NCBI GenBank assembly: GCA_964454975.1
Contig: CAYVVD010000008.1
Location: 52,915-116,914 of the forward strand
Origin: an uncultured Hyphomicrobiales bacterium
GTDB taxonomy: Bacteria; Bacteroidota; Ignavibacteria; Kapaibacteriales; UBA2268
Reading direction: 5' to 3'
Length of the DNA: 64,000 bases
The notes below the pieces were generated by a model that did not search any database, had not been told where the DNA came from, and saw only the letters and a program-made list of their open reading frames with translations. A program made the position numbers and the translations under genes. Below are positions 10,906-52,899 of the stretch, one piece after another (the stretch's first letter is position 1; the number at the start of each line of letters is the position of its first letter).

Positions 10906-11176
10906 ATCAATTAAGAATTTAGAATTGCCCCTGACTAAAATAGGTTGACTTAATATTAATTCAAAGCTAATTAATGGTACAACGTGTGTCTCCTGCTGAG
11001 GGGTGTCTCCCAAGGAGACAGGAGTGGAAAATTAGAATAACAATTTGAATTCATCCCGAAGGTTTCCAAGGCTCCTATGGAAAATGCCTTTAACAAGGTA
11101 TTTTATTGAATTGTTTGATGTAAAAAATCAACGTAACATGTCGTTAGAACAATTCTTGTTTTTTCATTTTCCAATA

Positions 11177-14836: not shown

Positions 14837-14967
14837 TTTTATAAGGTAATTTACAACATCTGCATTAGACGGAATGCCTTAGTTTATACTGTTCAAACTG
14901 AATAGTTGAATTTTCGGCAATGGAATTTATTATATTTAGAAGAATTTTTATTTAAAGCCCGGTAGTG

Positions 14968-16863
14968 ATGCTAAAGTCAATATTCAGTGACGTAAAATTC
15001 CGCTTTGATGATGAAACAGAGCAGCTCTACAGGAGTGAATCTTATTCTGCAAACATCACTGTAATTAGGATTTACCTTATTCTTTCGATTGTCCTTTTTG
15101 CATTGTTTGCGCTTTTAGACCAGCTCAGCCTGCCTGAAAGCTGGGGAACAGCATTTTTCATCCGTTTCTTTGTTGTTATTCCCGTACTCGTCCTGACTTT
15201 ATCCGTTAGCTATATGCCATTCTTTGAGCGTTATAATCAAAGGATACTCACTGTAGTCGCGATTGTGATGGCATACAGCATTCTGGTAATGATAGCTGTT
15301 TCAGATTCATCGGAAGTTGCATTTTTCAATTATTATCCGGGTTTGTTTATAATATCATTTTCTTCAATTATCCTTCTTCAGTTAAGGATGATTTACTCCA
15401 TAATATTGACAATCGCCGTAATTGCCGGGTACGAATTTGTAGTGTATTCAATCCAGGGTATGCATAAACTGGAATACAACTCTGAATTGTTTGCCATTTT
15501 TCTGAATAATAATATTTACTTCGTTTCAATAGCCTCCGGTGGTGTGATTGTAGGATTCATCCTGGAGTATTTTAAGCGAAAGAGTTTTATTTCGGGGCTT
15601 GAGATAAAAGTAAAGCTAAAAGAAATCGAAGAAAAAAACAGGGAGATATACAGGCAAAAAACAAACCTTACAAAAACACTTGATGAATTGAAAGCAACAC
15701 AGGAAAAGCTGACTTCGATTATCAATAATGACATAGCAGGGATTAACGTAATCGACCTCAACATGAGATATCTTTTTGTGAACCATGCCTGGTGCAGCAT
15801 GCTCGGTTATGAAGAAAGCGAATTGTTGCAAAAGAAAGTTCTTTATGTTACTCATGTGGATGATAAAGAAATAACCAACGATTTTTTCAAGCAGGCGATT
15901 GACGGTACACTTTGGGAATACCACCTCGAAAAGCGGTATATCCGCAAGGACGGCAGCACATTCTGGGGGGATTTGTTTATCTCACCGGTTTATAATGGTT
16001 CCGGCTCAATAGAATATGTTATTTCAATTATAGTTGATATTACTAACCGGAAAGCAATCGAGCAGAACCTGATTGAGTCGGAGCAAAACCTTCTTAAATC
16101 AAACAATGAAAAAGACAACTATCTAAACCAGCTTAAGTACGAATTAAAGGTCGCTGCCGGTTACGCGAAGTCGCTCCTGCCCGATGAAATTAATGAGGGT
16201 ATATTGCATGCCGAATGGCGTCTGATACCTTCCGCTGACCTCGGCGGCGACCACTTCGGTTACCACTGGATAGATAACGAACACTTCGCCATGTATCTTG
16301 TAGATGTATGCGGCCATGGTGTTGCGCCGGCTTTGCATGCCATTTCCGTGATTAATGTACTGCGGAACAAAACACTCCCCAATACAGATTTCACAGACCC
16401 GGTAAGCGTTTTAAGCTCTTTAAATAAGACATTCCAAATGGAAAAGCACAACGATATGTATTTCACGATGTGGTATGGAGTTTTCAATAAATACACAAGG
16501 GAGCTGCTTTATGCATCCGCGGGCCATCCGGGTGCAATGCTGATTGACATGGAAGGGAATCTAGACGTGCTCGAAACGGACAACTATGTAATGGGCGATA
16601 TTGAAGATTTTGATTACAAGAAAGCAGAGGTTCTCGTAAACGGAAAGGCATTTCTTTTTATCTTCTCCGATGGTGTGTTTGAAATCGAGACAGGGGAGCG
16701 GCAGATGTGGACACAGAATGACCTATACAATTTCCTGGGCGAGGAGCTGAAGAACCCGGAATCTGAGATAGATGCATTATATAATCACGCTATAAGTCTC
16801 AACAAGGGCAAGCTCGATGACGACTTCTCTATGCTCAAAATCACTTTCAACGGGAAGGAATAG
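14968..16863 (+). CDS. Membrane-anchored PAS-domain sensor fused to a PP2C/SpoIIE phosphatase
   Basis: About 6 N-terminal TM helices, then a coiled-coil, a PAS domain (NVIDLNMRYLFVNHAWCSMLGY) and a C-terminal SpoIIE domain (DLGGDHFGY, DVCGHGV). Confidence 0.8.
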   Translation: MLKSIFSDVKFRFDDETEQLYRSESYSANITVIRIYLILSIVLFALFALLDQLSLPESWGTAFFIRFFVVIPVLVLTLSVSYMPFFERYNQRILTVVAIVMAYSILVMIAVSDSSEVAFFNYYPGLFIISFSSIILLQLRMIYSIILTIAVIAGYEFVVYSIQGMHKLEYNSELFAIFLNNNIYFVSIASGGVIVGFILEYFKRKSFISGLEIKVKLKEIEEKNREIYRQKTNLTKTLDELKATQEKLTSIINNDIAGINVIDLNMRYLFVNHAWCSMLGYEESELLQKKVLYVTHVDDKEITNDFFKQAIDGTLWEYHLEKRYIRKDGSTFWGDLFISPVYNGSGSIEYVISIIVDITNRKAIEQNLIESEQNLLKSNNEKDNYLNQLKYELKVAAGYAKSLLPDEINEGILHAEWRLIPSADLGGDHFGYHWIDNEHFAMYLVDVCGHGVAPALHAISVINVLRNKTLPNTDFTDPVSVLSSLNKTFQMEKHNDMYFTMWYGVFNKYTRELLYASAGHPGAMLIDMEGNLDVLETDNYVMGDIEDFDYKKAEVLVNGKAFLFIFSDGVFEIETGERQMWTQNDLYNFLGEELKNPESEIDALYNHAISLNKGKLDDDFSMLKITFNGKE

Positions 16864-19427: not shown

Positions 19428-20678
19428 ATGAGAAACGTTCTCGTAATTGCATATTATTTCCCGCCAATGGGGCTAAGCGGAGTCCAGAGGACACTCAAGT
19501 TTGTCAAATACCTTCCGGAGCACGGCTGGAATCCAATAGTCCTTACTTACACTCCTTCTATGTACTATGCCTTCGATGAATCACTCGAAAGCGAGCTGGG
19601 TGAAACAATTATTTACCGTACCGAACCCGAAAAAAAAAATAAGCAGGACAAAAAAACTGTAAAATATCCCTCGCGCCTCGCAGATAAGTTGCGAAAGATA
19701 ATTGTCCAGACTCTGATGCAGCCTGACAGCAAAGTTGGATGGAAAAAATATGCACTGAAAAAAGCTGAAGAAATTTATAAGGAGCATAAGGTTGATGTGG
19801 TTTTCACAACAGCCCCGCCATTTACAGATTTCCTTATTGCGCGGGAATTAAACAAGCGTTATGGAACTCCTTTCCTTGCTGATTACCGCGATTTGTGGGT
19901 TGATAATGCTTATTATTATTACTCAACTCCATTCCACAGGATGTATAGCATGGGGCTGGAACGCGATATACTTAACTCCGCCGGTAAAGTTGTGGTGATC
20001 TCGAGGGATATGAAAGAAAAGCTGCTGCAGCGCTACAAACTGATTTCGCATAACGATATTACAATAATACCGCATGGTTACGACAGCAGCGACTTCGAGA
20101 ATGTGGATTTTGTTAAAGACGACACTAAATTCACGATTACTCATACAGGGCTGTTCCCCGATGATTTAACACCCAGGTATTTCCTGAAAGCATTGTCGAG
20201 ATTTTTTGCGAATAATCCGAAAGCAAAGAAAGAGACAGAGCTGCGCCTTGTTGGCCTGATGAAGAAAGAGCATCTGAACCTGCTGAAAAAATATAAATTG
20301 GACGAGATAACAAAAACACCCGGTTACGTAAATCACTCCGAATCGGTAAAGAATTTACTCGAGTCTGATTTATTATGGATGATGATTCCAAACAAATTAG
20401 TTACGCCGGGCAGGCTTTTTGAATATATAGGCGCCGATAAGCCCATTTTGCTGAATGCACCTGAAGGCAGCATGCGGAAATTGGCAACAGATACAAAAGC
20501 TGCAATTGTCTCTGATGTAAAGGATATTGGCTCAATAGAGAAAGCAATAGCTTCGTTTTACAAGCTGTGGAAAAGCGGAAGTCTGCCAAAACCTTCCCGG
20601 GAATATACAGCCAATTTTGACAGACGCTACTTAGCAGGCGAACTTGCTCGTGAATTATCCCTGATTGCTGAAATATAG
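19428..20678 (+). CDS. GT-B fold glycosyltransferase (GT4-like)
   Basis: 416-aa ORF with the N-terminal YYFPP GT4-like motif and a C-terminal nucleotide-sugar-binding region. Confidence 0.65.
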   Translation: MRNVLVIAYYFPPMGLSGVQRTLKFVKYLPEHGWNPIVLTYTPSMYYAFDESLESELGETIIYRTEPEKKNKQDKKTVKYPSRLADKLRKIIVQTLMQPDSKVGWKKYALKKAEEIYKEHKVDVVFTTAPPFTDFLIARELNKRYGTPFLADYRDLWVDNAYYYYSTPFHRMYSMGLERDILNSAGKVVVISRDMKEKLLQRYKLISHNDITIIPHGYDSSDFENVDFVKDDTKFTITHTGLFPDDLTPRYFLKALSRFFANNPKAKKETELRLVGLMKKEHLNLLKKYKLDEITKTPGYVNHSESVKNLLESDLLWMMIPNKLVTPGRLFEYIGADKPILLNAPEGSMRKLATDTKAAIVSDVKDIGSIEKAIASFYKLWKSGSLPKPSREYTANFDRRYLAGELARELSLIAEI

Positions 20679-23848: not shown

Positions 23849-24541
23849 ATGAAACTGGTGATATTTGATATTGACGGAACACTCCTGAATTCGGTAGAAG
23901 CAGACGACAAATGCTTCCGGCTGGCATTCAGGGATGTGTTTCATATTGACCTTGCACACCTGGACTGGGAGTACTTCAAATCTATTACCAGCGGCACCGA
24001 CGAAGGAATGGCAGTAGAGATTTTCCGCCATTACTTCGGGCGTACTCCTTCGCTGGAAGAAATGGAAAAGTTTAAGTGGTATTTTCATAAGCTGCTTAAT
24101 GGCAATTTCCATCAATATCCGGGTTCGTTCGAGGAAATTCCCGGAGCAGCTGAATTTTTCAGAATCTTATATGAAGATAAGGACATTGGTGTTGCTATAT
24201 CTACCGGTAGCTGGAGGGATTCGGCTATATTAAAGCTTGCAGCTCTCGGAATAAAACACAGGGGAATTCCACTTGCTACTTCCGATGATGATGAATACCG
24301 CACTTTTATAATCAAAAAAGCAATTTCAGAATCACAGAATGCATACAGCAAAACATCCTTTGAATCTATAATTTACTTCGGGGATGGCCTGTGGGACCTG
24401 AAAGCAGCTACTGAAGCAGATACTAAGTTTATTGGAGTTGATTACAAGAGGAAGGGCACATTCAGCGGAAAGGATGTAAAGGATGTTATTGAGAACTACA
24501 AAAAACCTGAAAATATCCTTGGCAAATTAGCCCTTATGTAA
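23849..24541 (+). CDS. HAD-superfamily hydrolase (phosphatase-like)
   Basis: Begins with the HAD motif I (FDIDGTL). 230 aa. Confidence 0.8.
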   Translation: MKLVIFDIDGTLLNSVEADDKCFRLAFRDVFHIDLAHLDWEYFKSITSGTDEGMAVEIFRHYFGRTPSLEEMEKFKWYFHKLLNGNFHQYPGSFEEIPGAAEFFRILYEDKDIGVAISTGSWRDSAILKLAALGIKHRGIPLATSDDDEYRTFIIKKAISESQNAYSKTSFESIIYFGDGLWDLKAATEADTKFIGVDYKRKGTFSGKDVKDVIENYKKPENILGKLALM

Positions 24542-25595
24542 GCAGTTTTATTCTCGAATAAATATAATCAAGGCTTTCTTTCTTAAGAATTGCTTTATAG
24601 ATTTCTGTTTCTCCCAGATGCTTTAGTTTAACCCCTTTGTAATCAATATACCTCCTGCTCCTGTTCTTATCAAACCAATACACAAGCGATATGTTGCCTT
24701 TATTGATCTCAATCCCGGTAAGGCCTCTCTTTCCAATCACACTACCGCTATTGAAGAGGCAGGGGACGAGGACTTTCTCGTTGTAAAGGCCATTGCGCAG
24801 GTTATACTGCTTATTCTGTTTATAAAGATTATCAAGTTCATCTTTGAATTTTTTTATATTTTCCCTGATTCGTTCTTTTTTCTCCCCTTGTGTTATAGGA
24901 AACTTCCTGAGTAAAGTTTCAAGGATCATTATTACTGAATCAATTTTAGACATTGATTCGAATAGCGGCCTGTGTGTATGCCCAAGGATAGAGATAAGTT
25001 TCTTCATGCTGGCAAATTTATATGCGTAAACTTCCGTACGAAATTTTTTATCAGAGTCTATCGGGAATGAACTGTTTTCTATTCCAAATGCATTCACAAA
25101 TGTTCTGACAAACAGTTTAGCTATTGGATTGTACTTTTCGAAATAATTAGCGGTCTGGTGCCCGTGATATAGAAAGACCGGTACATCTTCAATATAAATG
25201 CGGATGCCTTCGAGCAGATTTTTGTTTGCATTTGGAAAACTCTTGTGTGAAGCAAGGAAATCATGATTACCAATGATTTTATAGAAATGCCCGCGGGAGT
25301 CAAAGCGGTCAAAAATATCGTAGATATCCTTCCATGCTTTGAAAACATCCTTAACTTTGAACTTGTATAACTCTTCTACATCTCCGTTTAAAACTAACCT
25401 GTATTCTCTTTCCAGGTAGTATTTTTTTAAAACTTCACTGAAGAGGGGCGCATTTGGCTTAAATTCGTCATTCTTGCCTCCATCGCCCATGTGAAGGTCA
25501 CTGAATATAACAAGGCGGTCGTCACTTGATAACTTCAGCGACGGGGATTCTTTAAAGAGCAATTCGAGTACGTCAAAAACCCGCTCTTCACTCAC
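24534..25595 (-). CDS. Calcineurin-like metallophosphoesterase
   Basis: Carries the DLHMGDGG, GDVEE, GNHD and GHTH metal-binding motifs. Confidence 0.75.
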   Translation of the reverse strand: MSEERVFDVLELLFKESPSLKLSSDDRLVIFSDLHMGDGGKNDEFKPNAPLFSEVLKKYYLEREYRLVLNGDVEELYKFKVKDVFKAWKDIYDIFDRFDSRGHFYKIIGNHDFLASHKSFPNANKNLLEGIRIYIEDVPVFLYHGHQTANYFEKYNPIAKLFVRTFVNAFGIENSSFPIDSDKKFRTEVYAYKFASMKKLISILGHTHRPLFESMSKIDSVIMILETLLRKFPITQGEKKERIRENIKKFKDELDNLYKQNKQYNLRNGLYNEKVLVPCLFNSGSVIGKRGLTGIEINKGNISLVYWFDKNRSRRYIDYKGVKLKHLGETEIYKAILKKESLDYIYSRIKLLT

Positions 25596-25639
25596 AGGTG
25601 TAATCCAGATGTTTGTTATGCTGCATTTTTACAGGGCTC

Positions 25640-26527
25640 TTAGTTTTTAATCACCCTGCGTAATTTTTTCCTGATAGGCACTTCACTGTCATAAACACGC
25701 TTGATGCCATTACCGAGCGACATCTCGATGTCTCTGATATTTGATACCATCCTTATCAGGCCGCCGATTTCTACTGAAGCTGCCTGATCCGAACCCCACA
25801 TAGCTCGGTCGGTTGTTATATGCCTTTCTATGAAACTTGCGCCAAGCACAACCGCTGCCCATGTAGGTGCCAGGCCTGTTTCATGCCCGGAATAACCAAT
25901 GGGTATATCATTGTACTTTTCTCTCAAAGTCTGTATTACACGAAGGTTTAATTCTTCGAGCTTGCAAGGGTAAGTTGATGTTGAGTGTGCAACAAGAAGT
26001 TTTTCCCTGTTGAGCAAATTGACTGCGTACTCAATTTCCTCAGGCGAGGACATCCCGGTTGAAATCATGAGCGGCTTGCCGGTTGATTCCATCTTCTTGA
26101 GCAGCGGGTCATCTGTTAATGAAGCTGAAGGCGCTTTGTAAAAGGGTACATCGAACTTCTCGATAAAATCAACTGCTTCCTCGTCCCAGCAGGAAGCAGT
26201 CCACATAATATTGTGGTCCCGGCAGTATTTATCAATTTCAGAGTATTCGTCGACCCCGAATTCTACTTTATGACGGTAATCTATATATTTCATCCTTCCC
26301 CAGGGAGTGTCCCTTTCAATATACCATTGGTCTTTTGGTACGCATAACTCCGGAGTACGTTTCTGAAACTTTACTGCGTCAGCTCCGGCTGTGATTGCTC
26401 CGGCAATCATCTTTTTGGCAAGCTCGAGCGAGCCATTGTGATTAATGCCGATCTCTCCTATAATAAAAACAGGTTCTCCATCCCCTACAAACCTGCTGCC
26501 AATTTGAATTTTTCTTCTTTCTGCCAT
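25640..26527 (-). CDS. NeuB-family (N-acetylneuraminate / pseudaminate synthase-like) TIM-barrel aldolase, lacking the SAF domain
   Basis: NeuB/PseI/SpsE-type motifs (FIIGEIGINHNGS, KFQK, SGHETG). At 295 aa it has no C-terminal antifreeze-like domain. Confidence 0.75.
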   Translation of the reverse strand: MAERRKIQIGSRFVGDGEPVFIIGEIGINHNGSLELAKKMIAGAITAGADAVKFQKRTPELCVPKDQWYIERDTPWGRMKYIDYRHKVEFGVDEYSEIDKYCRDHNIMWTASCWDEEAVDFIEKFDVPFYKAPSASLTDDPLLKKMESTGKPLMISTGMSSPEEIEYAVNLLNREKLLVAHSTSTYPCKLEELNLRVIQTLREKYNDIPIGYSGHETGLAPTWAAVVLGASFIERHITTDRAMWGSDQAASVEIGGLIRMVSNIRDIEMSLGNGIKRVYDSEVPIRKKLRRVIKN

Positions 26528-26556
26528 TTTTCTCTCAAACTAGTTCTTAATAAAAA

Positions 26557-27369
26557 TTACCAAATAGTCCAGCCGCCATCTACAACGAGATTTGCACCTG
26601 TCATGTAGGAAGATGCTTCGCTGGCAAGAAATACAAGCGCACCTTTGTAATCATTAGGTTGCGCCATCCTCCCGAGAGGTGTCCGCTTTGAATATTTTTC
26701 GATAAAGTGCTCTGCCTGGTTGTTCTCAACTCCCCCGGGCGAAAGAGTATTCACCCGGACACCACTGCTTCCCCAGTATGAAGCAAGGAATTTTGTAAAC
26801 ATTACAACTGCGCCTTTTGATGTTGGGTAAGCTGCCGATTTGTAAAATTCCTGTTCGCCGTTAGGGTTTACATATAACGACTGGTCGGGTGCTACAACAC
26901 CATAGGTGGAAGCAATATTCACTATGCTTCCGGAGCCCTGCCTTGCCATATCGGCCCCGATAACCTGTGAGCAGATGAACATACCGGTTACATTTACATC
27001 CATCACTTTTCTAAATAGCTCAAGCGGATAATTCTCGAATTTGGACTGCTGCAATTTATTTACGGGGTTTTCCACCATGTCGTTGATAGCGGCATTGTTT
27101 ACAAGCACGTCTATCCTGCCGAATTCCTTGAGAATATTATATTTTGTAGCTTTTACCGAATCGATGCGAGTAATGTCAAGCCCGACACCCAGACTGTTCG
27201 AGGGTAATTCAGCTGAAAATCTTTTTGATTCTTTTTCATTCAGATCGCAGACAACAACATTTGCACCTGCTTCCGCGAGAGCGTAGCAATGGCTTCGACC
27301 AATCAATCCAAGAGCGCCGGTAACAACTGCTACTTTTCCTTCAAGCGAAAAGATTTCATGAAGGCTCAT
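26557..27369 (-). CDS. Short-chain dehydrogenase/reductase (classical SDR)
   Basis: TGALGLIGRS cofactor motif, NNAA, YxxxK. Confidence 0.85.
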   Translation of the reverse strand: MSLHEIFSLEGKVAVVTGALGLIGRSHCYALAEAGANVVVCDLNEKESKRFSAELPSNSLGVGLDITRIDSVKATKYNILKEFGRIDVLVNNAAINDMVENPVNKLQQSKFENYPLELFRKVMDVNVTGMFICSQVIGADMARQGSGSIVNIASTYGVVAPDQSLYVNPNGEQEFYKSAAYPTSKGAVVMFTKFLASYWGSSGVRVNTLSPGGVENNQAEHFIEKYSKRTPLGRMAQPNDYKGALVFLASEASSYMTGANLVVDGGWTIW

Positions 27370-28703
27370 TATCTATTCTTTGGTTTGGTATTAAAATTAC
27401 CTACTTTACGGAAAACCGGCTTAACCGGCTCTCCTTTGAGAAACTTTTCAGGTTCTCCCGATTTTACTGCTTTATTCACTATGGGCAATGCAGCCCTGTA
27501 GGCTTTAAGGGTGTATTCCACATCTTCATCAGTATGAGAGTAAGACATATTGTGGAAACCGCCCCAAAGTACGCCTCTCTTTATCATCTCTTGCTGCAGA
27601 AGAGATTTAAGCACTAGGGGGTTGCCTGCTTCAGGAGAAAAAGTCATGAGGGAACGGCAGTTGTAGCCGACTGCCTTAGAAAAGCCAATGCCCATTTCTT
27701 CCGCAATTTGATTGTATCCGACTTTAAGCTTTGCTCCCTGTTTGTCGAGATATGACGCCACGTTCTTGTCCTTCATTTCCAGCAATGTTGCCTTGGCTGC
27801 AGCTAGTGAAAGCGCCTCCCCGCCAAATGTGTTATAGAAGAATACTTCGTTCTCGACAAGCTTCATAATATCATACTTGCCTGTAAGAATTGACAAAGGC
27901 ATTCCGTTGGCAACTGCCTTAGAGTATGTTGCAAGGTCTGCCTTTACTCCAAAATACTCCTGCGCTCCTCCTAATGCAAGGCGAAACCCTGTCCACATTT
28001 CATCAAAAATCAGCACGATGCCCTTTTCATTGCAAATATCGCGAAGCTTGTGGAGGAAATTGTCCTTTGGCGGCTCAAATACTATGGGTTCAAGAATAAT
28101 AGCTGCCGTGTCATCATCAATAGAGTTAAGCACTGAGTCAATATCATTGTAGTTGAATGTATAGGTAAGCTGTTTAGCAAAATCCGGGATTCCTTTATCC
28201 CAGTCGGTAACTGCAATATACCAGTCCTGCGCTCCGTGGTAACCGCAACAGAGGATTGTATTCTTCCCTGTATAAGCACGAGCCAACCTTACTGCAGCAG
28301 TTGTTACCTCATTCCCTGATTTTGCAAATCTTACAGACTCAGCATTTGGGATAATATCCCTGAGTATTTCAGCTACTTCAACTTCGAGCGGATGCATCAG
28401 AGAAAAAGTAATCCCATCTTCAAGCTGTTGCATGATGGCGTTGTCAATTCTTTCATAGCAGTAGCCAAGCGAGAGAGGGCCGACTGCCATAGTATAATCA
28501 ATATATTCGTTGCCGTCTACATCCCAGACATGTGCGGCCTTTCCTTTTTGGAGATAAACCGGCGCAACGCCAAAAATGTGCTGCCCGGGGCCTTTTGCAA
28601 GTGTCTGAGTATAATTAGGAATCAGTTCTGTAGATCTTTTATATAGCTCTATTGATTTTTCAATGTTTGGGTAATCATTATCGAGTCTTATTCCGTTCGG
28701 CAT
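27369..28703 (-). CDS. Class-III pyridoxal-phosphate aminotransferase (GSA-aminomutase-like)
   Basis: 444-aa ORF with the AT-III fold motifs (FDEMWTGFR, YSKAVANGMP). Confidence 0.82.
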   Translation of the reverse strand: MPNGIRLDNDYPNIEKSIELYKRSTELIPNYTQTLAKGPGQHIFGVAPVYLQKGKAAHVWDVDGNEYIDYTMAVGPLSLGYCYERIDNAIMQQLEDGITFSLMHPLEVEVAEILRDIIPNAESVRFAKSGNEVTTAAVRLARAYTGKNTILCCGYHGAQDWYIAVTDWDKGIPDFAKQLTYTFNYNDIDSVLNSIDDDTAAIILEPIVFEPPKDNFLHKLRDICNEKGIVLIFDEMWTGFRLALGGAQEYFGVKADLATYSKAVANGMPLSILTGKYDIMKLVENEVFFYNTFGGEALSLAAAKATLLEMKDKNVASYLDKQGAKLKVGYNQIAEEMGIGFSKAVGYNCRSLMTFSPEAGNPLVLKSLLQQEMIKRGVLWGGFHNMSYSHTDEDVEYTLKAYRAALPIVNKAVKSGEPEKFLKGEPVKPVFRKVGNFNTKPKNR

Positions 28704-28704
28704 A

Positions 28705-29619
28705 TCATCCCTCCTGGTTTAATTCTTTCAATTTAGCCTTAATCTTTTCGGCCAATTTCTCACCTGTAAACCCTTCATATTCGAGTATCCCCTGAATCAT
28801 TCCGGGCCTGTGCCAGGAGTTCAGGCCCAAGGGCAGAACCGGCCTCATCTTCTGTTGTTCAGCCATATAATTTGCGAGAATTGAATATAGACCGTTCCAA
28901 TTAAAATGGTCTTCTACGGTTACAATCAAGCGGCATGAATCAAGAGCCGAATTAACAGCGCTCCTGTCGAATGGTTTAACTGTGCGAAGGTTGATTAACC
29001 TTGTCGAAATACCATCATTATCAAGTAAAGTTTTTGCTTCAAGGGCCTGTTTCGTTAAAATCCCGTATGTAAGGATAGCAACATTGTTGCCTTCGCCAAA
29101 TACTTCTGCTTTCGCAATGCGGAATACTTCATGGTGCTTAATTCCGGAGTTTGAATCATTATACCTGATGTAAAATGGCATTTCGCTTCTAATAATATCC
29201 GGAAGTCCGGCGAGCATTTCATCCTTGTCCGCCGGGCAAAAGACACCTACATTCGGGATGCCGTACATCAGTCCGACATCTTCCACAGCCTGGTGAGTTG
29301 GGCCGTTTGCAGTTCCGAGGAATCCGGAAAAAGCTCCAACAAGCTTAACAGGCAGATTGCCATAACCAACATCGGTGCGAATAAATTCGAAAGAGCGCAT
29401 AGTAAGGAATGCCGCCAATGCGTGAACTACGGGTATCCTGCCTCTGAGTGCCATGCCGCAGGCAGAGCCGACAAGGCTCATTTCAGCAATGCCAACATCT
29501 ACAAAATTGTTTTTTATCTGTTCAGGGATATTCCTGATTGACGCGCGATTCTCAGCAGTCATAACGACAATTCTGTCGTCTTCTTCAATCATTTGTTTTA
29601 ATAATTCTTCGTAAGTCAT
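28705..29619 (-). CDS. Transketolase, C-terminal (pyrimidine-binding) subunit
   Basis: Split-transketolase B subunit (GIAEMSLVGSACGMAL, GPTHQAVEDV). Confidence 0.88.
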   Translation of the reverse strand: MTYEELLKQMIEEDDRIVVMTAENRASIRNIPEQIKNNFVDVGIAEMSLVGSACGMALRGRIPVVHALAAFLTMRSFEFIRTDVGYGNLPVKLVGAFSGFLGTANGPTHQAVEDVGLMYGIPNVGVFCPADKDEMLAGLPDIIRSEMPFYIRYNDSNSGIKHHEVFRIAKAEVFGEGNNVAILTYGILTKQALEAKTLLDNDGISTRLINLRTVKPFDRSAVNSALDSCRLIVTVEDHFNWNGLYSILANYMAEQQKMRPVLPLGLNSWHRPGMIQGILEYEGFTGEKLAEKIKAKLKELNQEG

Positions 29620-29631
29620 ATTACCATCCGT

Positions 29632-30453
29632 TTAATATTCATCGTGCAATTGCTTGATAGCTTCACTTAATTCTTCTTCGCTCATGTTGCAATACCATTT
29701 GTCAGCTCTTTCCTCGATACCGATTACGCCCTTGCCCCTTATTGTATCGGCGATGATGCAGTTTGGCGCCCCCGCCTTGAATGGAATTTTGGAGAATGCC
29801 TTGTTCAGGTCATTGAAATCGTGGCCGTCAACGTACTTTACTTTCCATCCGAAATTCTTAAATTTTTTATTAATTGGTTCTATCGGTATCAGGTCTTCTG
29901 TTCTCATATTTGCCTGGAAATGATTCCTGTCGATCACAACAACCAGGTTGTCGAGGAAAAAAGCGGCGGCAATCAAAATAGCTTCCCAGTTGGAACCTTC
30001 ATTTAACTCGCCGTCTCCAACCACAACAACTACGCGGTTGCTTGTCTCTTTTAGCTTGCAATCTATGGCAACGCCAAGGGCAAGTGGGAGCAGGTGTCCC
30101 AGCGAACCCGAGTGAAATTCAACTCCGGGAATAGTCGCATTTGGATGCCAGTATATCAAGTCATTTGTTTGGAGGTGGTTTGCGAGCCTTTCTTCTTCGA
30201 GGAAACCGATTTCAACAAATGTACCATATAACGCAGGTACTGCATGGCCCTTTGAGAGGAAGAAATAATCGCGTTCCTCAGAATTTAAATTATCTTTGGA
30301 AACATTAAGGAAATGTTTGTAGAGATACAGAATCACATCTGCACATGAGAGCGCGGCTCCTGCGAACGCCCCTCCGTTTGTTGACATTCTTAATATCCTT
30401 TCTCTAACCCTTACAGAAGCCTCTATCAGGCTTTTCTCATTAATTTCTGCCAT
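29632..30453 (-). CDS. Transketolase, N-terminal (TPP-binding) subunit
   Basis: Split-transketolase A subunit (GHLLPLALG, GDGELNEG TPP motif). Confidence 0.88.
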   Translation of the reverse strand: MAEINEKSLIEASVRVRERILRMSTNGGAFAGAALSCADVILYLYKHFLNVSKDNLNSEERDYFFLSKGHAVPALYGTFVEIGFLEEERLANHLQTNDLIYWHPNATIPGVEFHSGSLGHLLPLALGVAIDCKLKETSNRVVVVVGDGELNEGSNWEAILIAAAFFLDNLVVVIDRNHFQANMRTEDLIPIEPINKKFKNFGWKVKYVDGHDFNDLNKAFSKIPFKAGAPNCIIADTIRGKGVIGIEERADKWYCNMSEEELSEAIKQLHDEY

Positions 30454-30467
30454 TATAGTTCCTTTTC

Positions 30468-31268
30468 CTACTTAATTAATCTGGTCTGCTTTTTCTTGAT
30501 TGTCTTCAATTGGCCAAGATGATTCCTGTACCAGTTTACCCCGGAGTATTTCCCGTTTATTTTCATTATTTCCGGGTTTTCATCAAGTAATTCAAGAATT
30601 TCTTTCAGTGTGAAAATACGATGCTTGGAATAAAGTTCTTCATAGATTTTTTTAACAAATTCATAGTCTTCCTGGTAGTCAATTGTAAAACGATGGCTCA
30701 TTGAATAATCAAGGCCAGTCTCCCATTCTACGTTCCCAATCCTGAATTCTCCGGGATTATCCCAGATGTAAGGAGTTGTATGCTCCAGCTCGAATTCCTG
30801 CTCTGCATTCACCCAGGCATGTTCCAGAATCTCAATGGGTATCGCTTCAACATCATTACCATCAGGATAAGAAGCGGGGTGGAGGTTACTTACAAAATCA
30901 TATTCATCTTTGTGGTTTATATAGTATTGAAGCACCCTGTCAATTACGCTTGGGTCAATCAAAGGGCAATCAGATGGGATTTTTACTGCAACGTCCGCCT
31001 GGAATTGCTTTGCAGCTTTGTAGTGCCGGTCGAGAAGATTAGTAGGGTGGCCCCGGAAGCAGTTGAAGCCCTCTGCAACACATATATTTTCAACAAAGTC
31101 GTCTTCAGTGTCAGTTGTAGTAGCAACCACAATGTTGGTTGGAAGTTTTGCTGCAGCCATTCTTTCCAGCTGCCTGTATAGAATGCTTTTGCCTAAAATG
31201 CTTTTTAATATTTTACCCGGCAGGCGGGTTGAACCTGTCCGCGCCTGCACAATAACTACAATGTTCAT
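30468..31268 (-). CDS. Acylneuraminate-type cytidylyltransferase (CMP-sugar synthetase; SpsF/PseF-like)
   Basis: N-terminal VIVQARTGSTRLPGK motif of the CTP_transf_3 family. Confidence 0.78.
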   Translation of the reverse strand: MNIVVIVQARTGSTRLPGKILKSILGKSILYRQLERMAAAKLPTNIVVATTTDTEDDFVENICVAEGFNCFRGHPTNLLDRHYKAAKQFQADVAVKIPSDCPLIDPSVIDRVLQYYINHKDEYDFVSNLHPASYPDGNDVEAIPIEILEHAWVNAEQEFELEHTTPYIWDNPGEFRIGNVEWETGLDYSMSHRFTIDYQEDYEFVKKIYEELYSKHRIFTLKEILELLDENPEIMKINGKYSGVNWYRNHLGQLKTIKKKQTRLIK

Positions 31269-32338
31269 CAGGAAAATTTGCTAATGAATTTTTTAACCCT
31301 TGTACTGGTTTTTATCAATCTGGAATTGTCAGCTTCTACTTCATAATTACTCGCACGGTTATCTTTTTCTAGATAATCAATAGCTATGTTCGCAATATTC
31401 CGTGCTGAATTACCTCCGTTTTGAAGTGGCTGGAGCTTCTTCAGGTCATTTATATCGAAATAAGAATACACTTCCTTGTTTAAGGCCAGCCCCGTATATA
31501 CGACGGTAGAATATTTGGTTATCAAAACCTTGCAATTGGCAATCATTTCGTGAGCGTTGCCTTCTGAGTAAACAAGTGCTCCGGGGGCATATGTATTTAT
31601 TTCCTTGGTTGCTCTTTCAACGTGTTCGTTTGGGTGCAGCTTGAATATCAATTGTCTGCCATTAGCTATTTCAACGGCTTCTTCGATGAATTTTTTCCTG
31701 TTCTCATACTTGAATGTTTCGCGGGAATCTGATGTAGCAACAAGTACGTAACCTTTGTGTGGGAAATTGTTGTCATAATATCGGGCGCAATTGTCGTAAT
31801 TAGGTATTCCTGTTACTCGCAGTTTGGATTCATCAACACCATTTTTAATGAACATCTCTTTATAACCTTCGGATGCTACGCAAAACAAGTCATAAGCATC
31901 GGAAAGGCCTGTAGCAGCAGTTCCGGCAATGTATCTTGGAATTCTCATCCACTTAACCATGTAATAACCGATATTCTTAGGATCGGTCATTCCTTCCTGG
32001 ACAAGGATTAATTTTTTATCAAGGGCATTCTCCGGTACAATCAGGTCGCTGCAGGTAAAAGCAAGGTCGTAATCGTTTGCAGTACCCATATAATCAATTT
32101 TCAGTCCGTGATTTTTCAGGTATTTTTCTGTGTTTTCCCTAAATGAACCCCCAAGGATAGAAAAATCCAGATATCCCTGCCTTGCCAGGTAGCGTATAAA
32201 TCCGTCGGCATAATACGGCGTAAAATAATGCTCGTAATCCTTCATATGCATTGATATCTGGTGCATCATGGAAGTTTGGTTTATGCTCCCGCATATAAAG
32301 AGGACTTTCTTTTTATTGCCCTTAAGCATTGTATCCAT
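31268..32338 (-). CDS. GT-B fold protein (PseG/SpsG-like UDP-sugar hydrolase or glycosyltransferase-like)
   Basis: 356-aa ORF with a two-Rossmann-like layout. It is the first gene of the operon. The assignment is by gene context and weak motifs only. Confidence 0.45.
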   Translation of the reverse strand: MDTMLKGNKKKVLFICGSINQTSMMHQISMHMKDYEHYFTPYYADGFIRYLARQGYLDFSILGGSFRENTEKYLKNHGLKIDYMGTANDYDLAFTCSDLIVPENALDKKLILVQEGMTDPKNIGYYMVKWMRIPRYIAGTAATGLSDAYDLFCVASEGYKEMFIKNGVDESKLRVTGIPNYDNCARYYDNNFPHKGYVLVATSDSRETFKYENRKKFIEEAVEIANGRQLIFKLHPNEHVERATKEINTYAPGALVYSEGNAHEMIANCKVLITKYSTVVYTGLALNKEVYSYFDINDLKKLQPLQNGGNSARNIANIAIDYLEKDNRASNYEVEADNSRLIKTSTRVKKFISKFS

Positions 32339-32683
32339 TAAATTTCAGACCTTTTATTTCAATTAATCCTGCAAAAATAAGCTTGATTAATGAATTGTAG
32401 ATGAAGATTGATAAAACTGCAGTTAACTACTGAAACAATTAATCTTCATTTTGTTCCGGGAAAATTTAGCAAAAATTAATCAAAGAGCAGGTTGTCCACA
32501 GGATTCCTTCTTTATATTCCATTTCTGATATTATTATCGCTTGTTTTCCACAATGCTATGTTAAGATACCTTTAAGAATGGCCGATTTATTAACCGTTAA
32601 TTAATATCGCTGACGCAATTATAATTAAATTATGATAATATTAACAATTTATCACATTTCGATTCATATACGTTAGAAACCAT

Positions 32684-38114: not shown

Positions 38115-39734
38115 ATGAAAAGCAGCAAGTGGAATATTATAATTATACTATCGCTGACTGTTTTTATTGCCTTCTTTATCAACCCTGTCTTAGAACTTCC
38201 ACTATATGACGACTGGTCCTTTTCAAAGCCCGTAAAAAATCTCACCGAGGGAGAGCCGCTCCAATTCACTGACTGGACTTCAATGAACCTGATTACCAAT
38301 GTATTATGGGGCTATCTGTTCACATTGCCCGATGGTTTTTCTTTTACGGCGCTGAGGATTTCTACAATTGCGATAGGGATAATTGGATTAGTTTTTTTCT
38401 ATTTACTGGCGGCCAAAGTTTTAAAAGATAAGCAAAAGGCTTTCCTTGCAACTTTATTTATATTGTTCAACCCGTATTTTCTCAGGTATCAATACAGTTT
38501 TAACACAGATGTTGTTTTTTTATCACTTGCTATTATATCTCTTTATTTCTTTAGCTTAAGTATTGAAAGAGACAAATTGATTTATTATCTCTCAGGGATT
38601 TTCTTTGCAATTGCTGCGACTCTAAGCCGGCAGCCGGGCCTTTTGATACCGCTTGTATTTGGAATTGCTTACCTGGTTGACAGAAAAATTACCCGAAGCA
38701 CATTAATCAAAGCAATCCTGCCAATTCTGTTAGTACTGTTGTCTTTGTTCCTGTACGCACGCTGGCTGGATAATATGTCTATCGCTCCAAAGCTTATGGA
38801 TGCGGGCTTCGAGCGAATAATTACTCTGTATTCGAGGGGAATAATTGATGCTCTCCTAACACTCGCAATGAATATTTTCAACACTACGTCATTTCTTGGT
38901 TTGTTCACTTTCCCTTTGCTGATATTAAATTTTAGCAAAATTTATCGCTGGCTGGAATCTCAGAAACCCTTGCATACTGTAATAATAATACTTGAAGTTT
39001 TTATAATATTTCCATTTGCGATTGATTTGATAATAGAGCGAAGCATCCCCTTTGTTTTCGAGTTTTTGCTGTTCCCACTGTTTGAGCCGGGAGTTTATCA
39101 CGATTCATTTAATTATGAGATTCAAAACGGATGGTATTCTGTCCCTCTTGCAGTATTGCTCTATTTCTCCTCTGTGTTAACAATATTAACTCTTATTGTT
39201 TACCTGAAAGAATTCAGTTCAATCAGGCAAAATAAATCGTTCATAATGATACTTCTTTTTGGATTAATTTACTCGGCGCTGATTATTAACACATACGTAT
39301 TTAATAAATACCTGATAGTTTCAATCCCTGCATTTGTACTAATGCTGCTTTATAATAAAAATACAAAGCAGGTGATTCTAATTACAGCTTTGTCAATCTT
39401 TGGGCTGGTTAGCGTATTATCTGCAGATACAAACCTAACAAGATACAAGGCGAGAGAAAATGTATTGAATATTTTGCTCAACGATAAAAAAGTGAAACCA
39501 AAAGAAATTGACGGCTGGGTTGAGTTTAATGCCTGGCATTTCTATGATTACGACTATGAGCCCAAAGAGAATAAAAGCTGGTACTGGGTGCAGGACGATA
39601 AATATAAAATACGCTTCAGGGAGGAAGAGGGCTACCGTTCTGTTTACTATATTGAATATGGTATATGGCTTCCACCATTCCGGGAAAGGTGCCATGCACT
39701 AAAAAGAATTGAGGATAAAGCCGATTCTGATTAA
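38115..39734 (+). CDS. GT-C fold membrane glycosyltransferase (ArnT/PMT-like)
   Basis: 539-aa ORF with ~12 TM helices. A first-loop DD motif (PLYDDWSF) is typical of ArnT/PMT-type GT-C enzymes. Confidence 0.65.
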   Translation: MKSSKWNIIIILSLTVFIAFFINPVLELPLYDDWSFSKPVKNLTEGEPLQFTDWTSMNLITNVLWGYLFTLPDGFSFTALRISTIAIGIIGLVFFYLLAAKVLKDKQKAFLATLFILFNPYFLRYQYSFNTDVVFLSLAIISLYFFSLSIERDKLIYYLSGIFFAIAATLSRQPGLLIPLVFGIAYLVDRKITRSTLIKAILPILLVLLSLFLYARWLDNMSIAPKLMDAGFERIITLYSRGIIDALLTLAMNIFNTTSFLGLFTFPLLILNFSKIYRWLESQKPLHTVIIILEVFIIFPFAIDLIIERSIPFVFEFLLFPLFEPGVYHDSFNYEIQNGWYSVPLAVLLYFSSVLTILTLIVYLKEFSSIRQNKSFIMILLFGLIYSALIINTYVFNKYLIVSIPAFVLMLLYNKNTKQVILITALSIFGLVSVLSADTNLTRYKARENVLNILLNDKKVKPKEIDGWVEFNAWHFYDYDYEPKENKSWYWVQDDKYKIRFREEEGYRSVYYIEYGIWLPPFRERCHALKRIEDKADSD

Positions 39735-44928: not shown

Positions 44929-46146
44929 TTACTTTTTAACTACGTAAAGGAACTTACGTTTTCCGACTTTGAACAACTTTTTAGTGCTTAAATCCACTTT
45001 AAAAAAGAAATCTTCGATTTTATCTCCGTCAATTGAAACACAGCCTTGGTCTATTAATCTGCGTACTTCTTTCTTGGATTGTACCAGCTCTGTCTGCACG
45101 AGTATATCTGCAACCGGGGCTTCAATTCCGTCCAAATCAAATTCTATAGTATCAATCTCGTCCGGGACATCTTTTTTAACGAAGATTCGCTCAAATTCCT
45201 CGAATGCTGCTTTCCCGGAATTCTCAACATGATATCTGTCAACAATTGCCATAGCGGTTTTTACCTTAGCATCCCTCGGATGCAATGAGCCGCTTTCGAG
45301 CTCTTTCTCCATCCTTGCGATTTCGTCTTCCGGTGCGAATGAAGCATACCTGTAATAGCGGGTAATAAGGTTGTCAGGGATTGACATTACCTTGCCGAAC
45401 ATTTCGCGCGGGCTGTCTGTAAGCGCTATATAGTTATTAAGCGATTTGCTCATTTTCTCAACGCCGTCAGTGCCTTCGAGGATAGGCATAGTAAGGATGC
45501 ACTGTGCTTCCTTTCCGTAAGCCTGCTGTATATGCCTTCCTACAATCAGGTTGAACTTCTGGTCGGTGCCGCCAAGCTCGACATCCGAGTCAATAGCGGC
45601 AGAATCCATGGCTTGGGCGAGCGGGTAAAGAAGTTCATGCACACTGATTGGAACGCCCTCTTTGAATCGCTTGCTGAAATCATCCCTCTCGATTAGCTGG
45701 GCAACGGTGTACTTGGCTGAAAGGCCAATAACGTCGCGGAAGTTCATAGCATTAAGCCATTCGGAATTGTACTTTACTTCGAGACTGTCTTCCCTGAGAA
45801 TCATAGTTGCCTGTTCAAGGTAGGATTGTCCGTTGATACGGGTTTCCTCTATTGTAAGCTGAGGCCTGGTCTTGGATTTACCCGATGGGTCGCCAATCAT
45901 GGCGGTAAAGTCACCGATAATCAATATCGCCTTGTGGCCTAAATCCTGAAACTGGCGCAGCTTATGGAGGACAACAGCATGCCCGATATGTAAGTCCGGT
46001 TTGCTGGGGTCGCAGCCAAGCTTTATGTTTAAAGGCTTTCCTGTTTTTGACGCCTTCTCTATTTTATCAGTCAGTTCATCTTCGGGAAGCACCTCTACTG
46101 CTCCCGATCGGATGACATCCATTTGCTCGTTGACTGTTGGAAACAT
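44929..46146 (-). CDS. tyrS: Tyrosine--tRNA ligase
   Basis: HIGH (DLHIGHAV) and KMSKS motifs, plus a C-terminal S4-like domain. Confidence 0.95.
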   Translation of the reverse strand: MFPTVNEQMDVIRSGAVEVLPEDELTDKIEKASKTGKPLNIKLGCDPSKPDLHIGHAVVLHKLRQFQDLGHKAILIIGDFTAMIGDPSGKSKTRPQLTIEETRINGQSYLEQATMILREDSLEVKYNSEWLNAMNFRDVIGLSAKYTVAQLIERDDFSKRFKEGVPISVHELLYPLAQAMDSAAIDSDVELGGTDQKFNLIVGRHIQQAYGKEAQCILTMPILEGTDGVEKMSKSLNNYIALTDSPREMFGKVMSIPDNLITRYYRYASFAPEDEIARMEKELESGSLHPRDAKVKTAMAIVDRYHVENSGKAAFEEFERIFVKKDVPDEIDTIEFDLDGIEAPVADILVQTELVQSKKEVRRLIDQGCVSIDGDKIEDFFFKVDLSTKKLFKVGKRKFLYVVKK

Positions 46147-46480: not shown

Positions 46481-46511
46481 AAACCAAAGGGCTTCTCTTA
46501 TTGAGAAGCCC
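46481..46511 (-). terminator. Rho-independent terminator downstream of the 46521-48614 lipoprotein gene
   Basis: A 9-bp perfect stem (GGGCTTCTC / GAGAAGCCC) with a 5-nt loop. On the minus-strand transcript it is followed by a U-rich tract (UUUGGUUUUAAAU). Confidence 0.6.
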
Positions 46512-46520
46512 GGGCTTCAA

Positions 46521-51516: not shown

Positions 51517-51517
51517 A

Positions 51518-52879: not shown

Positions 52880-52899
52880 TTAGTATTGTATTCTAAAAA

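Follow-up and report, generated by a model that had tools for sequence, protein, structure and literature searches.

What would a bacterium make with a transketolase (TK), an aminotransferase and an oxidoreductase whose genes stand between those of a CMP-sugar-type cytidylyltransferase and a NeuB-family synthase? This question is raised by a minus-strand locus at positions 24534-32338 of the window, i.e., of the whole 64,000-nt stretch of contig CAYVVD010000008.1 (assembly GCA_964454975.1) that was analyzed here, which comes from an uncultured bacterium placed in the Kapaibacteriales. Our best explanation, to which we assign a probability of roughly one in two as a whole, is that the locus is a self-contained and horizontally mobile cassette, whose product is a modified 3-deoxy-2-ulosonic acid with an amino substituent that it makes, activates with CMP and probably also transfers. 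The observations behind it are the enzyme families, their synteny, the residues of the NeuB homologue, the remodelling of the TK, a phosphatase gene in most cassettes and the lipid genes that adjoin them, and from these each of the substrates is inferred.

A seven-gene cassette is conserved in order across about eight phyla

A genome collection was scanned with the TK N subunit (TK-N) as query, and 80 loci were fetched. The seven genes, i.e., those for a GT-B fold protein, the cytidylyltransferase, TK-N, the TK C subunit (TK-C), a class-III aminotransferase, a short-chain dehydrogenase/reductase (SDR) and the NeuB homologue, were present in the same order in 44 of them, and most of the other loci carried the same cassette broken by contig ends. 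The mean identity of the cassette genes to the window copies was 54-68% in the 44 loci, with the NeuB homologue as the best-conserved member (68%). An arrangement like this lies far outside what chance would give. Going by record titles, the carriers belong to about eight phyla (Ignavibacteriota, Chloroflexota, Nitrospirota, Bdellovibrionota, Pseudomonadota, Thermodesulfobacteriota, Bacteroidota/Rhodothermaceae and Actinomycetota), and the finer labels include Kapabacteria, Anaerolineae, Caldilineae and Ardenticatenaceae (the last three in the Chloroflexota), Alphaproteobacteria and Acidimicrobiia. A cultured carrier is Methylomagnum ishizawai RS11D-Pr, in which the cassette lies on plasmid pRS11DPr1. 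The PGAP names of the Methylomagnum cassette genes are generic ('hypothetical', 'glycosyltransferase family protein', 'DXP synthase N-terminal domain-containing protein'), which indicates that no curated model recognises the system. No paper describing this gene combination was found in literature searches, and the cassette is apparently unstudied; thousands of close homologues of its GT-B and NeuB members are present in metagenomes. Two variant cassettes (L057 and L070) do without the aminotransferase gene, so that the SDR gene follows directly after that of TK-C, and judging from this gene content their product would be non-aminated.

In the window, 24534-32338 is filled by eight co-directional minus-strand ORFs arranged head to tail, and their proteins are identical, from first to last residue, to gene calls in an NCBI record. 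The original prediction had described seven tightly coupled genes here, and its account of their content was mostly right: the Pfam families are as named for all but the GT-B protein, and PF03102, PF02348, PF00202 and the TK N and C domains, which it had proposed as a check, were all found by Pfam. Its statement that stop and start codons overlap or sit 1 nt apart held for part of the run, since the spacing along the eight genes is -1, 14, 12, 1, -1, 29 and 44 nt in order. The coupling is thus that close at three of the seven junctions (GT-B/cytidylyltransferase, -1; TK-C/aminotransferase, +1; aminotransferase/SDR, -1), and 12, 14, 29 or 44 nt separate the genes at the others.

The split transketolase has lost six substrate-binding residues

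TK-N (29632..30453, minus strand, 273 aa) is a TK-like thiamine diphosphate (ThDP)-binding subunit of the PP-domain type, with a Transketolase_N match of 94.7 bits and the split TK 6yak as its best relative in the PDB (E 4e-47). TK-C (28705..29619, minus strand, 304 aa) carries the Pyr domain and the C-terminal domain (Transket_pyr, 86.7 bits; Transketolase_C, 68.3 bits), and is scored almost equally by the tkt and dxs models (151 and 144 bits). Against the TK equivalog NF004559, whose cut-off is 488 bits, TK-N reaches 207 and TK-C 151 bits.

The window subunits were then aligned to the characterised split TK of Carboxydothermus (6yak/6yaj) and to human TK, whose numbering is used here. Kept are the ThDP motif GDGELNEG...DRN and the equivalents of His77 and His110 in TK-N, and the cofactor Glu (GIAEM) and the His of the PTHQ motif (the equivalent of yeast His481) in TK-C. 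Six canonical positions that 6yak/6yaj keep were replaced or missing in every cassette orthologue of split type that was examined: His37 is Phe, His258 is Tyr in the window and Phe in most orthologues, His416 is Phe or Val, Asp424 is Asn, Arg474 is Asn or Asp, and Arg318 is absent, because TK-C begins with 'MTYEEL' at a start codon that is also the NCBI gene call. In canonical TKs, Arg318, His416 and Arg474 hold the substrate phosphate and Asp424 reads the C2-OH of the acceptor, and the His37/His258 pair acts on the C3-OH of the donor and on the acceptor carbonyl. An earlier deduction of ours, that the donor lacks a hydroxymethyl group, was dropped when the role of His37/His258 was re-assigned from the donor C1-OH to the C3-OH and the acceptor carbonyl. 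The six losses, together with the co-transfer of the pair across phyla, point to a dedicated, neofunctionalised ThDP enzyme and not to a TK of central metabolism, and the loss of the phosphate-binding residues fits a tailoring step after dephosphorylation. It is very likely, in our judgement, that the locus is a dedicated CMP-ulosonate cassette with a non-housekeeping TK.

Remodelled TK pairs also stand alone, outside any cassette, in Ignavibacteria (L039, L040 and L046, at ~10001-11750; CP054675.1, 'Ca. Tepidiaquacella proteinivora'). These pairs adjoin genes for a Cache-domain protein and a hybrid histidine kinase, and in them the His110 equivalent is also changed, to Gln. They were considered as housekeeping comparators and set aside as uninformative, as they show the same residue losses and lie beside sensor kinases.

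The NeuB homologue looks competent and a phosphatase accompanies it in most cassettes

The PEP-condensing synthase (25640..26527, minus strand, 295 aa) is a NeuB-family member, as had been predicted, with a PF03102 score of 254 bits (cut-off 22.1) and no SAF domain. In NeuB and PseI this C-terminal domain supplies Arg314 to the N-acetyl pocket. The protein remains below the equivalog cut-offs of NeuB_NnaB (TIGR03569, 246 versus 400 bits) and PseI (TIGR03586, 192 versus 340 bits). When it was aligned to Neisseria meningitidis NeuB (1xuu), E25, K53, Q55, K129, S132, Y186, S213, H215, E234, H236 and D247 were kept, whereas two residues of the sugar pocket were changed (E134 and N184, both to Ser). 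The metal- and PEP-binding set (E25, K53, K129, H215, E234 and H236) is complete, and on these residues the homologue looks catalytically competent.

A gene for a phosphatase of ~180 aa, with the signature DxDGVLTD...GDDxND, lies between the SDR and NeuB genes in 35 of the 44 cassettes. Its best NCBIfam model is the KDN-9-P phosphatase of Bacteroides (B. thetaiotaomicron), at 165 bits against an equivalog cut-off of 180, and the example from L002 exceeds the cut-off of the KdsC subfamily (TIGR01670, 145.6 versus 106.95 bits). Enzymes of this subfamily dephosphorylate ulosonate omega-phosphates. The presence of a KdsC/KDN-9-P-type phosphatase in most cassettes therefore suggests that the NeuB homologue probably condenses phosphoenolpyruvate (PEP) with an ordinary aldose phosphate, and the pathway is likely, as far as the gene content tells, to pass through a phosphorylated intermediate. 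The window cassette has no KdsC-type phosphatase gene, like the nine of the 44 cassettes without one, all of which are in lineages labelled diderm; such lineages would be expected to own kdsC for lipopolysaccharide (LPS). We also considered the metallophosphoesterase at the end of the window run as a stand-in for KdsC. This was rejected, since 12 loci hold both genes (in a clustering that included the window and L057) and members of the phosphoesterase family are also found where no cassette is nearby.

The cytidylyltransferase (30468..31268, minus strand, 266 aa), whose start overlaps the stop codon of the GT-B gene by 1 nt, matches PF02348 over profile positions 1-207 of 217 with 111.7 bits. 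The KdsB and PseF equivalog models match only its N-terminal ~120 residues (at best 65 bits versus a cut-off of 255, and 22 versus 206 for PseF), and its best PDB relative is 6oew, described as 'cytidylyltransferase' (E 1.5e-38). The aminotransferase (27369..28703, minus strand, 444 aa) is a pyridoxal phosphate enzyme of the Aminotran_3 family (PF00202, 164.6 bits), and remains below the equivalogs for 'GSA aminomutase PRK06209' (NF004856, 387 versus 486 bits) and hemL (TIGR00713, 244 versus 527 bits). Its profile is that of a class-III enzyme resembling glutamate-1-semialdehyde aminomutase (GSAM), and not of HemL; GSAMs were its first PDB matches, at ~1e-57, followed by FumI and sugar C-6' aminotransferases of the GenB type. 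All of these enzymes act on aldehydes or ketones. The classical SDR (26557..27369, minus strand, 270 aa), whose start overlaps the aminotransferase stop codon by 1 nt, scores 169.4 bits with adh_short_C2 and 143.6 bits with adh_short. Its best NCBIfam models are dehydrogenases of sugars and sugar acids (gluconate 5-dehydrogenase at 193.5 bits, glucose 1-dehydrogenase, KduD and mannonate oxidoreductase), all of them under their cut-offs.

The affinities of the GT-B protein are divided between TagF-like enzymes and 2-epimerases

The first gene of the operon (31268..32338, minus strand) encodes a GT-B fold protein of 356 aa that had been called PseG/SpsG-like. This name was not upheld, as neither Pfam nor NCBIfam gave a PseG match, and PseG and MurG were not close. 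The sole Pfam family above its cut-off was Glyphos_transf (PF04464), a borderline match of 23.6 bits (cut-off 22.1), and Epimerase_2 (PF02350) was sub-threshold (20.9 bits, cut-off 30.6). The NCBIfam matches, TIGR04396 (38 bits) and BFO_1060 (25 bits), were both far under their cut-offs. The homologues number 6175 and go by the name hypothetical or 'CDP-glycerol glycerophosphotransferase family', and many of them show weak PF02350 matches. A Foldseek search with an AlphaFold2 (AF2) model of the protein (pLDDT 77) returned 2-epimerases only among its top 50, whereas the profile of the family had a single match in the PDB, the TagF-like polymerase Cps3D, across the C-terminal nucleotide motif ITxYS(S/T) (E 2.6e-4). 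GTRPE and DSGGxQEE, which we take to be the epimerase motifs, were not seen in the sequence, which carries ITxYST instead. No transmembrane helix was found in it. Its invariant residues are D98, E115, D119 and H235 in the numbering of the window protein. The protein is therefore placed between the TagF-like and the 2-epimerase-like enzymes.

With regard to its function, we lean towards a CMP-dependent transferase for the cassette product, a reading of the motif and of the gene set. Enzymes of the TagF type and of the sialyl type both release CMP, which supports this assignment. In addition, the CMP-sugar would otherwise be without a user in the cassette, and a NeuC-like hydrolase would leave the phosphatase pointless. 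A NeuC-like nucleotide-sugar hydrolase or epimerase is rather unlikely, but it is a serious rival.

Lipid enzymes recur beside the cassette

The last gene of the strand run (24534..25595, minus strand) encodes an LpxH-like metallophosphoesterase of 353 aa, with a weak Metallophos match (21.6-24.8 bits in Pfam) and a score under the LpxH equivalog cut-off; its homologues (n=1680) are named 'LpxH' or 'phosphodiesterase' by JGI. The same family is found near the cassette in 12 of the 44 loci. A second LpxH-like phosphoesterase family lies divergently 5' of the cassette in six loci. The HAD-IA phosphatase at 23849..24541 (PF13419, 51.4 bits), which had been grouped with the metallophosphoesterase as a pair at the 3' end of the operon, was excluded from the system, as it lies on the plus strand, converges on the phosphoesterase gene with an 8-nt overlap, and is without a homologue throughout the 44 full cassette loci. 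Of that pair, only the metallophosphoesterase, as the eighth gene of the run, was retained.

Other accessory genes were observed in the related loci. In 9-10 loci the NeuB stop codon is overlapped or directly adjoined by a gene for an OlsE-like di-iron hydroxylase, which scores 126 bits with the OlsE model, and a gene for an OlsF-like bifunctional acyltransferase (PF19576/PF01553 + PF13444) lies 3' of the cassette in six loci and also in L084 and L085, where the order is cassette, OlsF-like gene, GT4 gene and phosphoesterase gene. In Methylomagnum the cassette is followed by LplT, OlsB-like and OlsA-like genes, and in L056 a PAP2 gene is near it. PlcP, a metallophosphoesterase phospholipase C, is commonly encoded in an operon with glycolipid glycosyltransferases, and the OlsBA and OlsF lipids increase under phosphate limitation (PMC4796936, PMC9239053). 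The modifications of ornithine lipids in a 2026 review are only hydroxylation, N-methylation and taurine transfer, and OlsF homologues are present in Ignavibacteriales without a demonstrated product (PMC12971839).

The recurrent same-strand neighbours are thus lipid enzymes and not polysaccharide machinery, which favours a membrane-lipid acceptor over a capsule or cargo of the type IX secretion system (T9SS). Tentatively, the cassette product may decorate or form a membrane-lipid head group, and the same neighbours suggest that the window phosphoesterase is part of a lipid-remodelling accessory set. No link was found to the surface glycan or T9SS cargo proposed in the original prediction: the flanks in the window are housekeeping genes, and elsewhere the cassette shares operons with aminolipid and lipid-remodelling genes.

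Some further observations concern these accessory genes. In L087 (5662-12282) a phosphoesterase gene of the window type stands directly after pstSCAB-phoU and before a glycerophosphodiester phosphodiesterase (GDPD) gene, a setting which suggests a place for the family in the phosphate-starvation response. A GNAT-like protein of 372 aa is encoded 3-113 nt from the cassette, on either side, in L004, L009, L013 and others, and also in L057; its sole match is a C-terminal GNAT domain (PF00583, 36.5 bits), with none in NCBIfam, and in its lineages it may stand in for OlsF as the acyltransferase. A PMT_2 membrane glycosyltransferase (GT-C, ArnT/GT39-like) is encoded 6 kb from the window cassette (38115-39734, plus strand), and another just 5' of the Methylomagnum cassette (L081, 4662-6203). 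These two were not accepted as counterparts, as they gave no cross-match and homology was undetectable. Likewise, the window GT4 gene (19428-20678) was rejected as a counterpart of the cassette-linked GT4 gene, as no similarity was seen at E 1e-3.

A proposed pathway and the alternatives to it

The gene content supports the earlier view that this is a non-canonical ulosonic-acid route, as the cassette unites an intact NeuB homologue and a PF02348 enzyme with an SDR, a ThDP enzyme and a class-III aminotransferase, and the usual 4,6-dehydratase and DegT aminotransferase were indeed not found in the eight genes or the flanks. In the pathway that we propose, the SAF-less NeuB homologue would form an ulosonate omega-phosphate from PEP and an ordinary aldose phosphate, and a KdsC/KDN-9-P-type phosphatase, presumably encoded elsewhere in the window genome, would take off the phosphate. 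The SDR would then make a carbonyl on the free ulosonate, the remodelled ThDP enzyme would move a two-carbon unit to or from the non-phosphorylated intermediate, and the GSAM-like aminotransferase would turn the ketone or aldehyde into an amine, leading to an amino or amino-diol tail. Finally, the PF02348 enzyme would form the CMP-sugar, and the GT-B protein, with its TagF-type motif for a cytidine nucleotide, would use it for transfer to a lipid acceptor, such as an aminolipid, a glycolipid or diacylglycerol, possibly within a phosphorus-sparing remodelling of lipids. This tailoring agrees with the logic of AziC5/C6 in the biosynthesis of diaminodihydroxyheptanoic acid (DADH), where the TK comes before the aminotransferase, and with the post-KdsC tailoring of the 8-amino derivative of Kdo (Kdo8N). 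Ketol transfer and transamination had been predicted to precede the condensation with PEP. The phosphatase of 35 of the 44 cassettes and the lost phosphate residues of the split TK do not favour that order, and quite possibly, though with some hesitation on our part, the tailoring takes place after condensation. Taken to its most specific form, this reading would have a C9-C11 amino ulosonic acid, extended by two carbons and ending in an amino-diol, arise by an undescribed route (NeuB condensation and dephosphorylation, after which the free acid is extended by C2 in a ThDP-dependent step and transaminated) and pass as a CMP-sugar onto a phosphorus-free lipid, i.e., a hydroxylated aminolipid of the ornithine type or a glycosyl-diacylglycerol; that all of these parts hold jointly is improbable.

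Several points weigh against this pathway. Most of the loci are contigs of metagenome-assembled genomes, whose taxonomic labels may be wrong, and the roles assigned to the TK residues are carried over from the yeast, Escherichia coli and human enzymes. Moreover, in L082 (Kapabacteria, GCA_026129425.1, JAHCIB010000007.1, 13595-15553) the TK slot of the cassette is occupied by a fused TK-family protein of 652 aa, which shares only 33% and 26% identity with the window subunits and keeps the equivalents of His37, His258, Arg318 and His416, so that the argument from a missing phosphate site to a step after dephosphorylation fails for some cassettes. By its sequence this protein is a non-orthologous replacement, which indicates that the ThDP-dependent C2 step is required in the cassette and the residue losses are not; the TK is thus split in the window, as predicted, but not universally. 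Both structure searches put the GT-B protein nearest to nucleotide-sugar 2-epimerases, including the hydrolysing NeuC, and such a likeness, based on a model, would place it at the start of a NeuC-NeuB-NeuA-type route instead of at the end. As for the lipid link, the window phosphoesterase family often occurs away from the cassette, 17 of the 44 cassettes, mostly from Chloroflexota, carry the unclassified 372-aa GNAT-like gene instead of Ols-like genes, and in 12, mostly from Nitrospirota, an SMR gene is the only accessory. The window copy itself is without KdsC and Ols-like genes, and the phosphoesterase gene is its sole accessory. A side observation on L082 is that the phosphoesterase gene and a DUF2141 gene lie 5' of the GT-B gene there, and not 3'.

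The alternatives differ in where they place the TK and the GT-B protein. If the TK pair were simply the central-metabolism enzyme of the organism, brought beside sugar genes by chance, its assignment by Pfam and NCBIfam to the transketolase family would be accounted for; however, the pair keeps its neighbours in all of the 44 loci, which span about eight phyla, its subunits score 207 and 151 bits against an equivalog cut-off of 488, and the six substrate-binding residues that 6yak/6yaj keep have been lost from it. This explanation, which had been named beforehand as the one that would overturn the prediction, is effectively refuted. A classical NeuC/NeuB/NeuA, legionaminic or pseudaminic acid route to a surface glycan or glycoprotein deserves more weight, although we regard it as unlikely. 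Here the GT-B protein, as a nucleotide-sugar hydrolase/2-epimerase, would release the aldose for NeuB, and the TK, aminotransferase and SDR would only modify the precursor; in essence this is what the original prediction had in mind. A GT-B hydrolase, a NeuB and a cytidylyltransferase form the familiar triad of nonulosonic acid (NulO) pathways, the weak PF02350 matches of many GT-B homologues agree with it, and a protein with a T9SS tail is encoded 1 kb past the HAD gene. Neither this protein nor the HAD gene is conserved beside the cassette, however; the Epimerase_2 match of the window protein is 20.9 bits against the required 30.6, and its C-terminal motif is TagF-like (ITxYST) and not the presumed epimerase DSGGxQEE. 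With a free aldose, the phosphatase of 35 of the 44 cassettes would be needless, and the cassette has no kinase. Dehydratase, DegT aminotransferase and N-acetyltransferase genes are absent from the cluster and its flanks, and polysaccharide export and polymerase genes are absent near the cassette in the window and in most related loci.

The other two alternatives retain a dedicated role for the TK or the amine. In a route resembling that to 3-amino-5-hydroxybenzoic acid (AHBA) via aminoDAHP, the SDR and the aminotransferase would give a 3-amino-3-deoxy ketose phosphate, the TK would cleave it to an imino-aldose phosphate, and NeuB would condense this with PEP to a 4-amino-3,4-dideoxy-ulosonate phosphate, followed by dephosphorylation and CMP activation. 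The enzyme types of the rifamycin AHBA pathway match (oxidoreductase, aminotransferase, split TK, PEP-condensing synthase and HAD phosphatase), a phosphatase suits a phosphorylated product, and the aromatic replacements of the two lost His, which act on the donor C3-OH, could face an amine. Nevertheless, the split TK has none of the canonical phosphate-binding residues, yet amino-fructose 6-phosphate and imino-erythrose 4-phosphate are phosphorylated; a kanosamine-type kinase and an isomerase are absent, and NeuB-family enzymes that accept imines are not known, so that this route is very unlikely. We think equally little of the proposal that the amino-ulosonic acid is itself a new aminolipid head group, N-acylated on its amine by OlsF/OlsB-like enzymes, with the CMP and GT-B steps serving another purpose or a second product. 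OlsF-like or OlsB/OlsA-like genes do lie directly 3' of the cassette in at least eight loci, the aminotransferase would supply the primary amine, and the OlsF homologues of Ignavibacteriales have no demonstrated product (PMC12971839). Against this, the cytidylyltransferase and the GT-B protein are invariant and the Ols-like genes occur in a minority of loci, cassettes without the aminotransferase exist (L057 and L070), and the known substrates of OlsB and OlsF are alpha-amino acids. The synthesis, CMP activation and probable transfer of an amino-substituted ulosonic acid thus remains the explanation that we prefer.

Promoter region and other genes of the window

Upstream of the operon, and divergent from the NFACT gene, there is an AT-rich region of 345 bp (32339..32683, minus strand) that is the probable promoter region, as predicted from its sequence. 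It contains the motif TATTTTTG ~35 nt 5' of the ATG, which fits the -7 consensus of Bacteroidetes, which we take to be TAnnTTTG, and also a TTGTTA-18-TATAAT match. The sigma-70 scan was at chance level (24 sites versus 22.8 expected). The terminator scan, in a set of scans at chance level overall, gave no terminator-like sites between the operon genes.

The flanks of the operon in the window are housekeeping genes (NFACT, MgsA, M20 peptidase, alanine racemase, PolA, PBP2 and HemN-like), with the unrelated GT4 and PMT_2 genes also nearby, and the window locus is not of the polysaccharide kind. Genes for a PHO4-family phosphate transporter of 751 aa (11177-13432, minus strand) and for two phosphatases of the SpoIIE/PP2C type (9589-10905 and 14965-16863, both plus strand) lie upstream of the cassette region, and one of the two phosphatases has PAS domains. 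The GC content is low at 46001-56000 (0.34-0.38 versus ~0.42 elsewhere), where a C39-like peptidase, a phosphonate-type ABC binding protein, a sensor kinase, a sigma-54 activator, a DUF5777 beta-barrel and a YceI-like protein are encoded. A molybdopterin oxidoreductase gene (56749-59310, plus strand) is followed by that of a 4Fe-4S dicluster subunit (59322-60395, plus strand), which ends in a T9SS sorting domain (Por_Secre_tail, 44.7 bits); it is unusual for such a redox subunit with iron-sulfur clusters to be targeted, as it apparently is here, to the T9SS.

Comparison with known systems and significance

In the KDN-9-P route of Bacteroides thetaiotaomicron and the Neu5Ac-9-P route of animals (NANS-NANP-CMAS), a NeuB-family synthase acts on an aldose phosphate and PEP, a KdsC-type HAD phosphatase follows, and a PF02348 enzyme activates the product, as proposed here. 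The cassette differs in that it adds the ThDP enzyme, the class-III aminotransferase, the SDR and the GT-B protein, its NeuB lacks SAF and stays under the NeuB and PseI cut-offs, and its phosphatase is below the equivalog cut-off (165 versus 180) and absent in the window. The NeuCBA, legionaminic and pseudaminic acid systems share with it the PEP condensation by a NeuB-family enzyme, the CMP activation by PF02348 and an enzyme of GT-B fold, whereas the cassette has no UDP- or GDP-sugar 4,6-dehydratase, DegT aminotransferase or N-acetyltransferase, and has instead a ThDP enzyme and a phosphatase that points to a phosphorylated intermediate; furthermore, its GT-B protein is not a GT28-like PseG nor, with its sub-threshold score, a true Epimerase_2 member.

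For the tailoring steps, a parallel is found in azinomycin and vazabitide, where the two-subunit TK AziC5/C6 extends a derivative of glutamate-5-semialdehyde by C2 and an aminotransferase makes the DADH amine from the new ketone (PMC9570651). Here too a split TK works on an aldehyde other than a sugar phosphate, and amination follows. In a plasmid search, a Streptomyces LysW/ArgB/ArgC cluster was found to encode a split TK, 40% identical to the window TK-N, beside an aminotransferase. Like the cassette TK, it lacks the Asp424 equivalent, but it keeps those of His37, His258, His416 and Arg474, which the cassette TK has lost. The contexts also differ, as AziC5/C6 serve a glutamate semialdehyde derivative and a non-ribosomal peptide synthetase (NRPS), and the aminotransferase of the Streptomyces cluster is of the DegT type and not of class III. 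In the Kdo8N system of Shewanella, the KdnB oxidoreductase and the KdnA aminotransferase act on free Kdo before KdsB. That system is alike in that a dephosphorylated ulosonic acid is oxidised, transaminated and then activated with CMP; it differs in the families of the oxidoreductase and aminotransferase, in having no ThDP enzyme, in drawing on the Kdo pool of LPS, and in not being a self-contained cassette.

The phosphorus-sparing lipid modules (PlcP with a GT4 of the Agt type; OlsBA/OlsF; OlsE) are represented by the same families next to the cassette, i.e., LpxH-like, GT4, OlsF-like, OlsB/OlsA-like and OlsE-like. The window, on the other hand, has no Ols-like gene, its phosphoesterase is likened to PlcP by metallophosphoesterase superfamily and genomic context only, and an aminolipid or glycolipid bearing an ulosonic acid is not described (PMC12971839). 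Relative to the known systems, the cassette is a variant of ulosonic-acid biosynthesis, and its link to a new lipid class is plausible but unproven.

Ulosonic acids such as Kdo and sialic, legionaminic and pseudaminic acid play a central part at bacterial surfaces and in host recognition, and to our knowledge all known routes to them use precursors of the Kdo type or of the nucleotide-sugar type. The cassette would add a ThDP-dependent carbon-carbon step to this chemistry, and it is not the curiosity of one genome, since it is syntenic in dozens of species-level genomes of about eight phyla. For biocatalysis on non-phosphorylated substrates, the remodelled TK could offer a scaffold, and M. ishizawai RS11D-Pr, a cultured carrier with the cassette on pRS11DPr1, makes the question directly testable. 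If the lipid link is true, the orphan OlsF homologues of Ignavibacteriales would be explained, and an unrecognised acidic or zwitterionic surrogate lipid would be revealed, with relevance to phosphorus limitation in soils, sediments and groundwater. If the most specific form of the pathway holds, the cassette would define a new class of charged head group of bacterial membrane lipids, spread over at least eight phyla and including the monoderm Chloroflexota.

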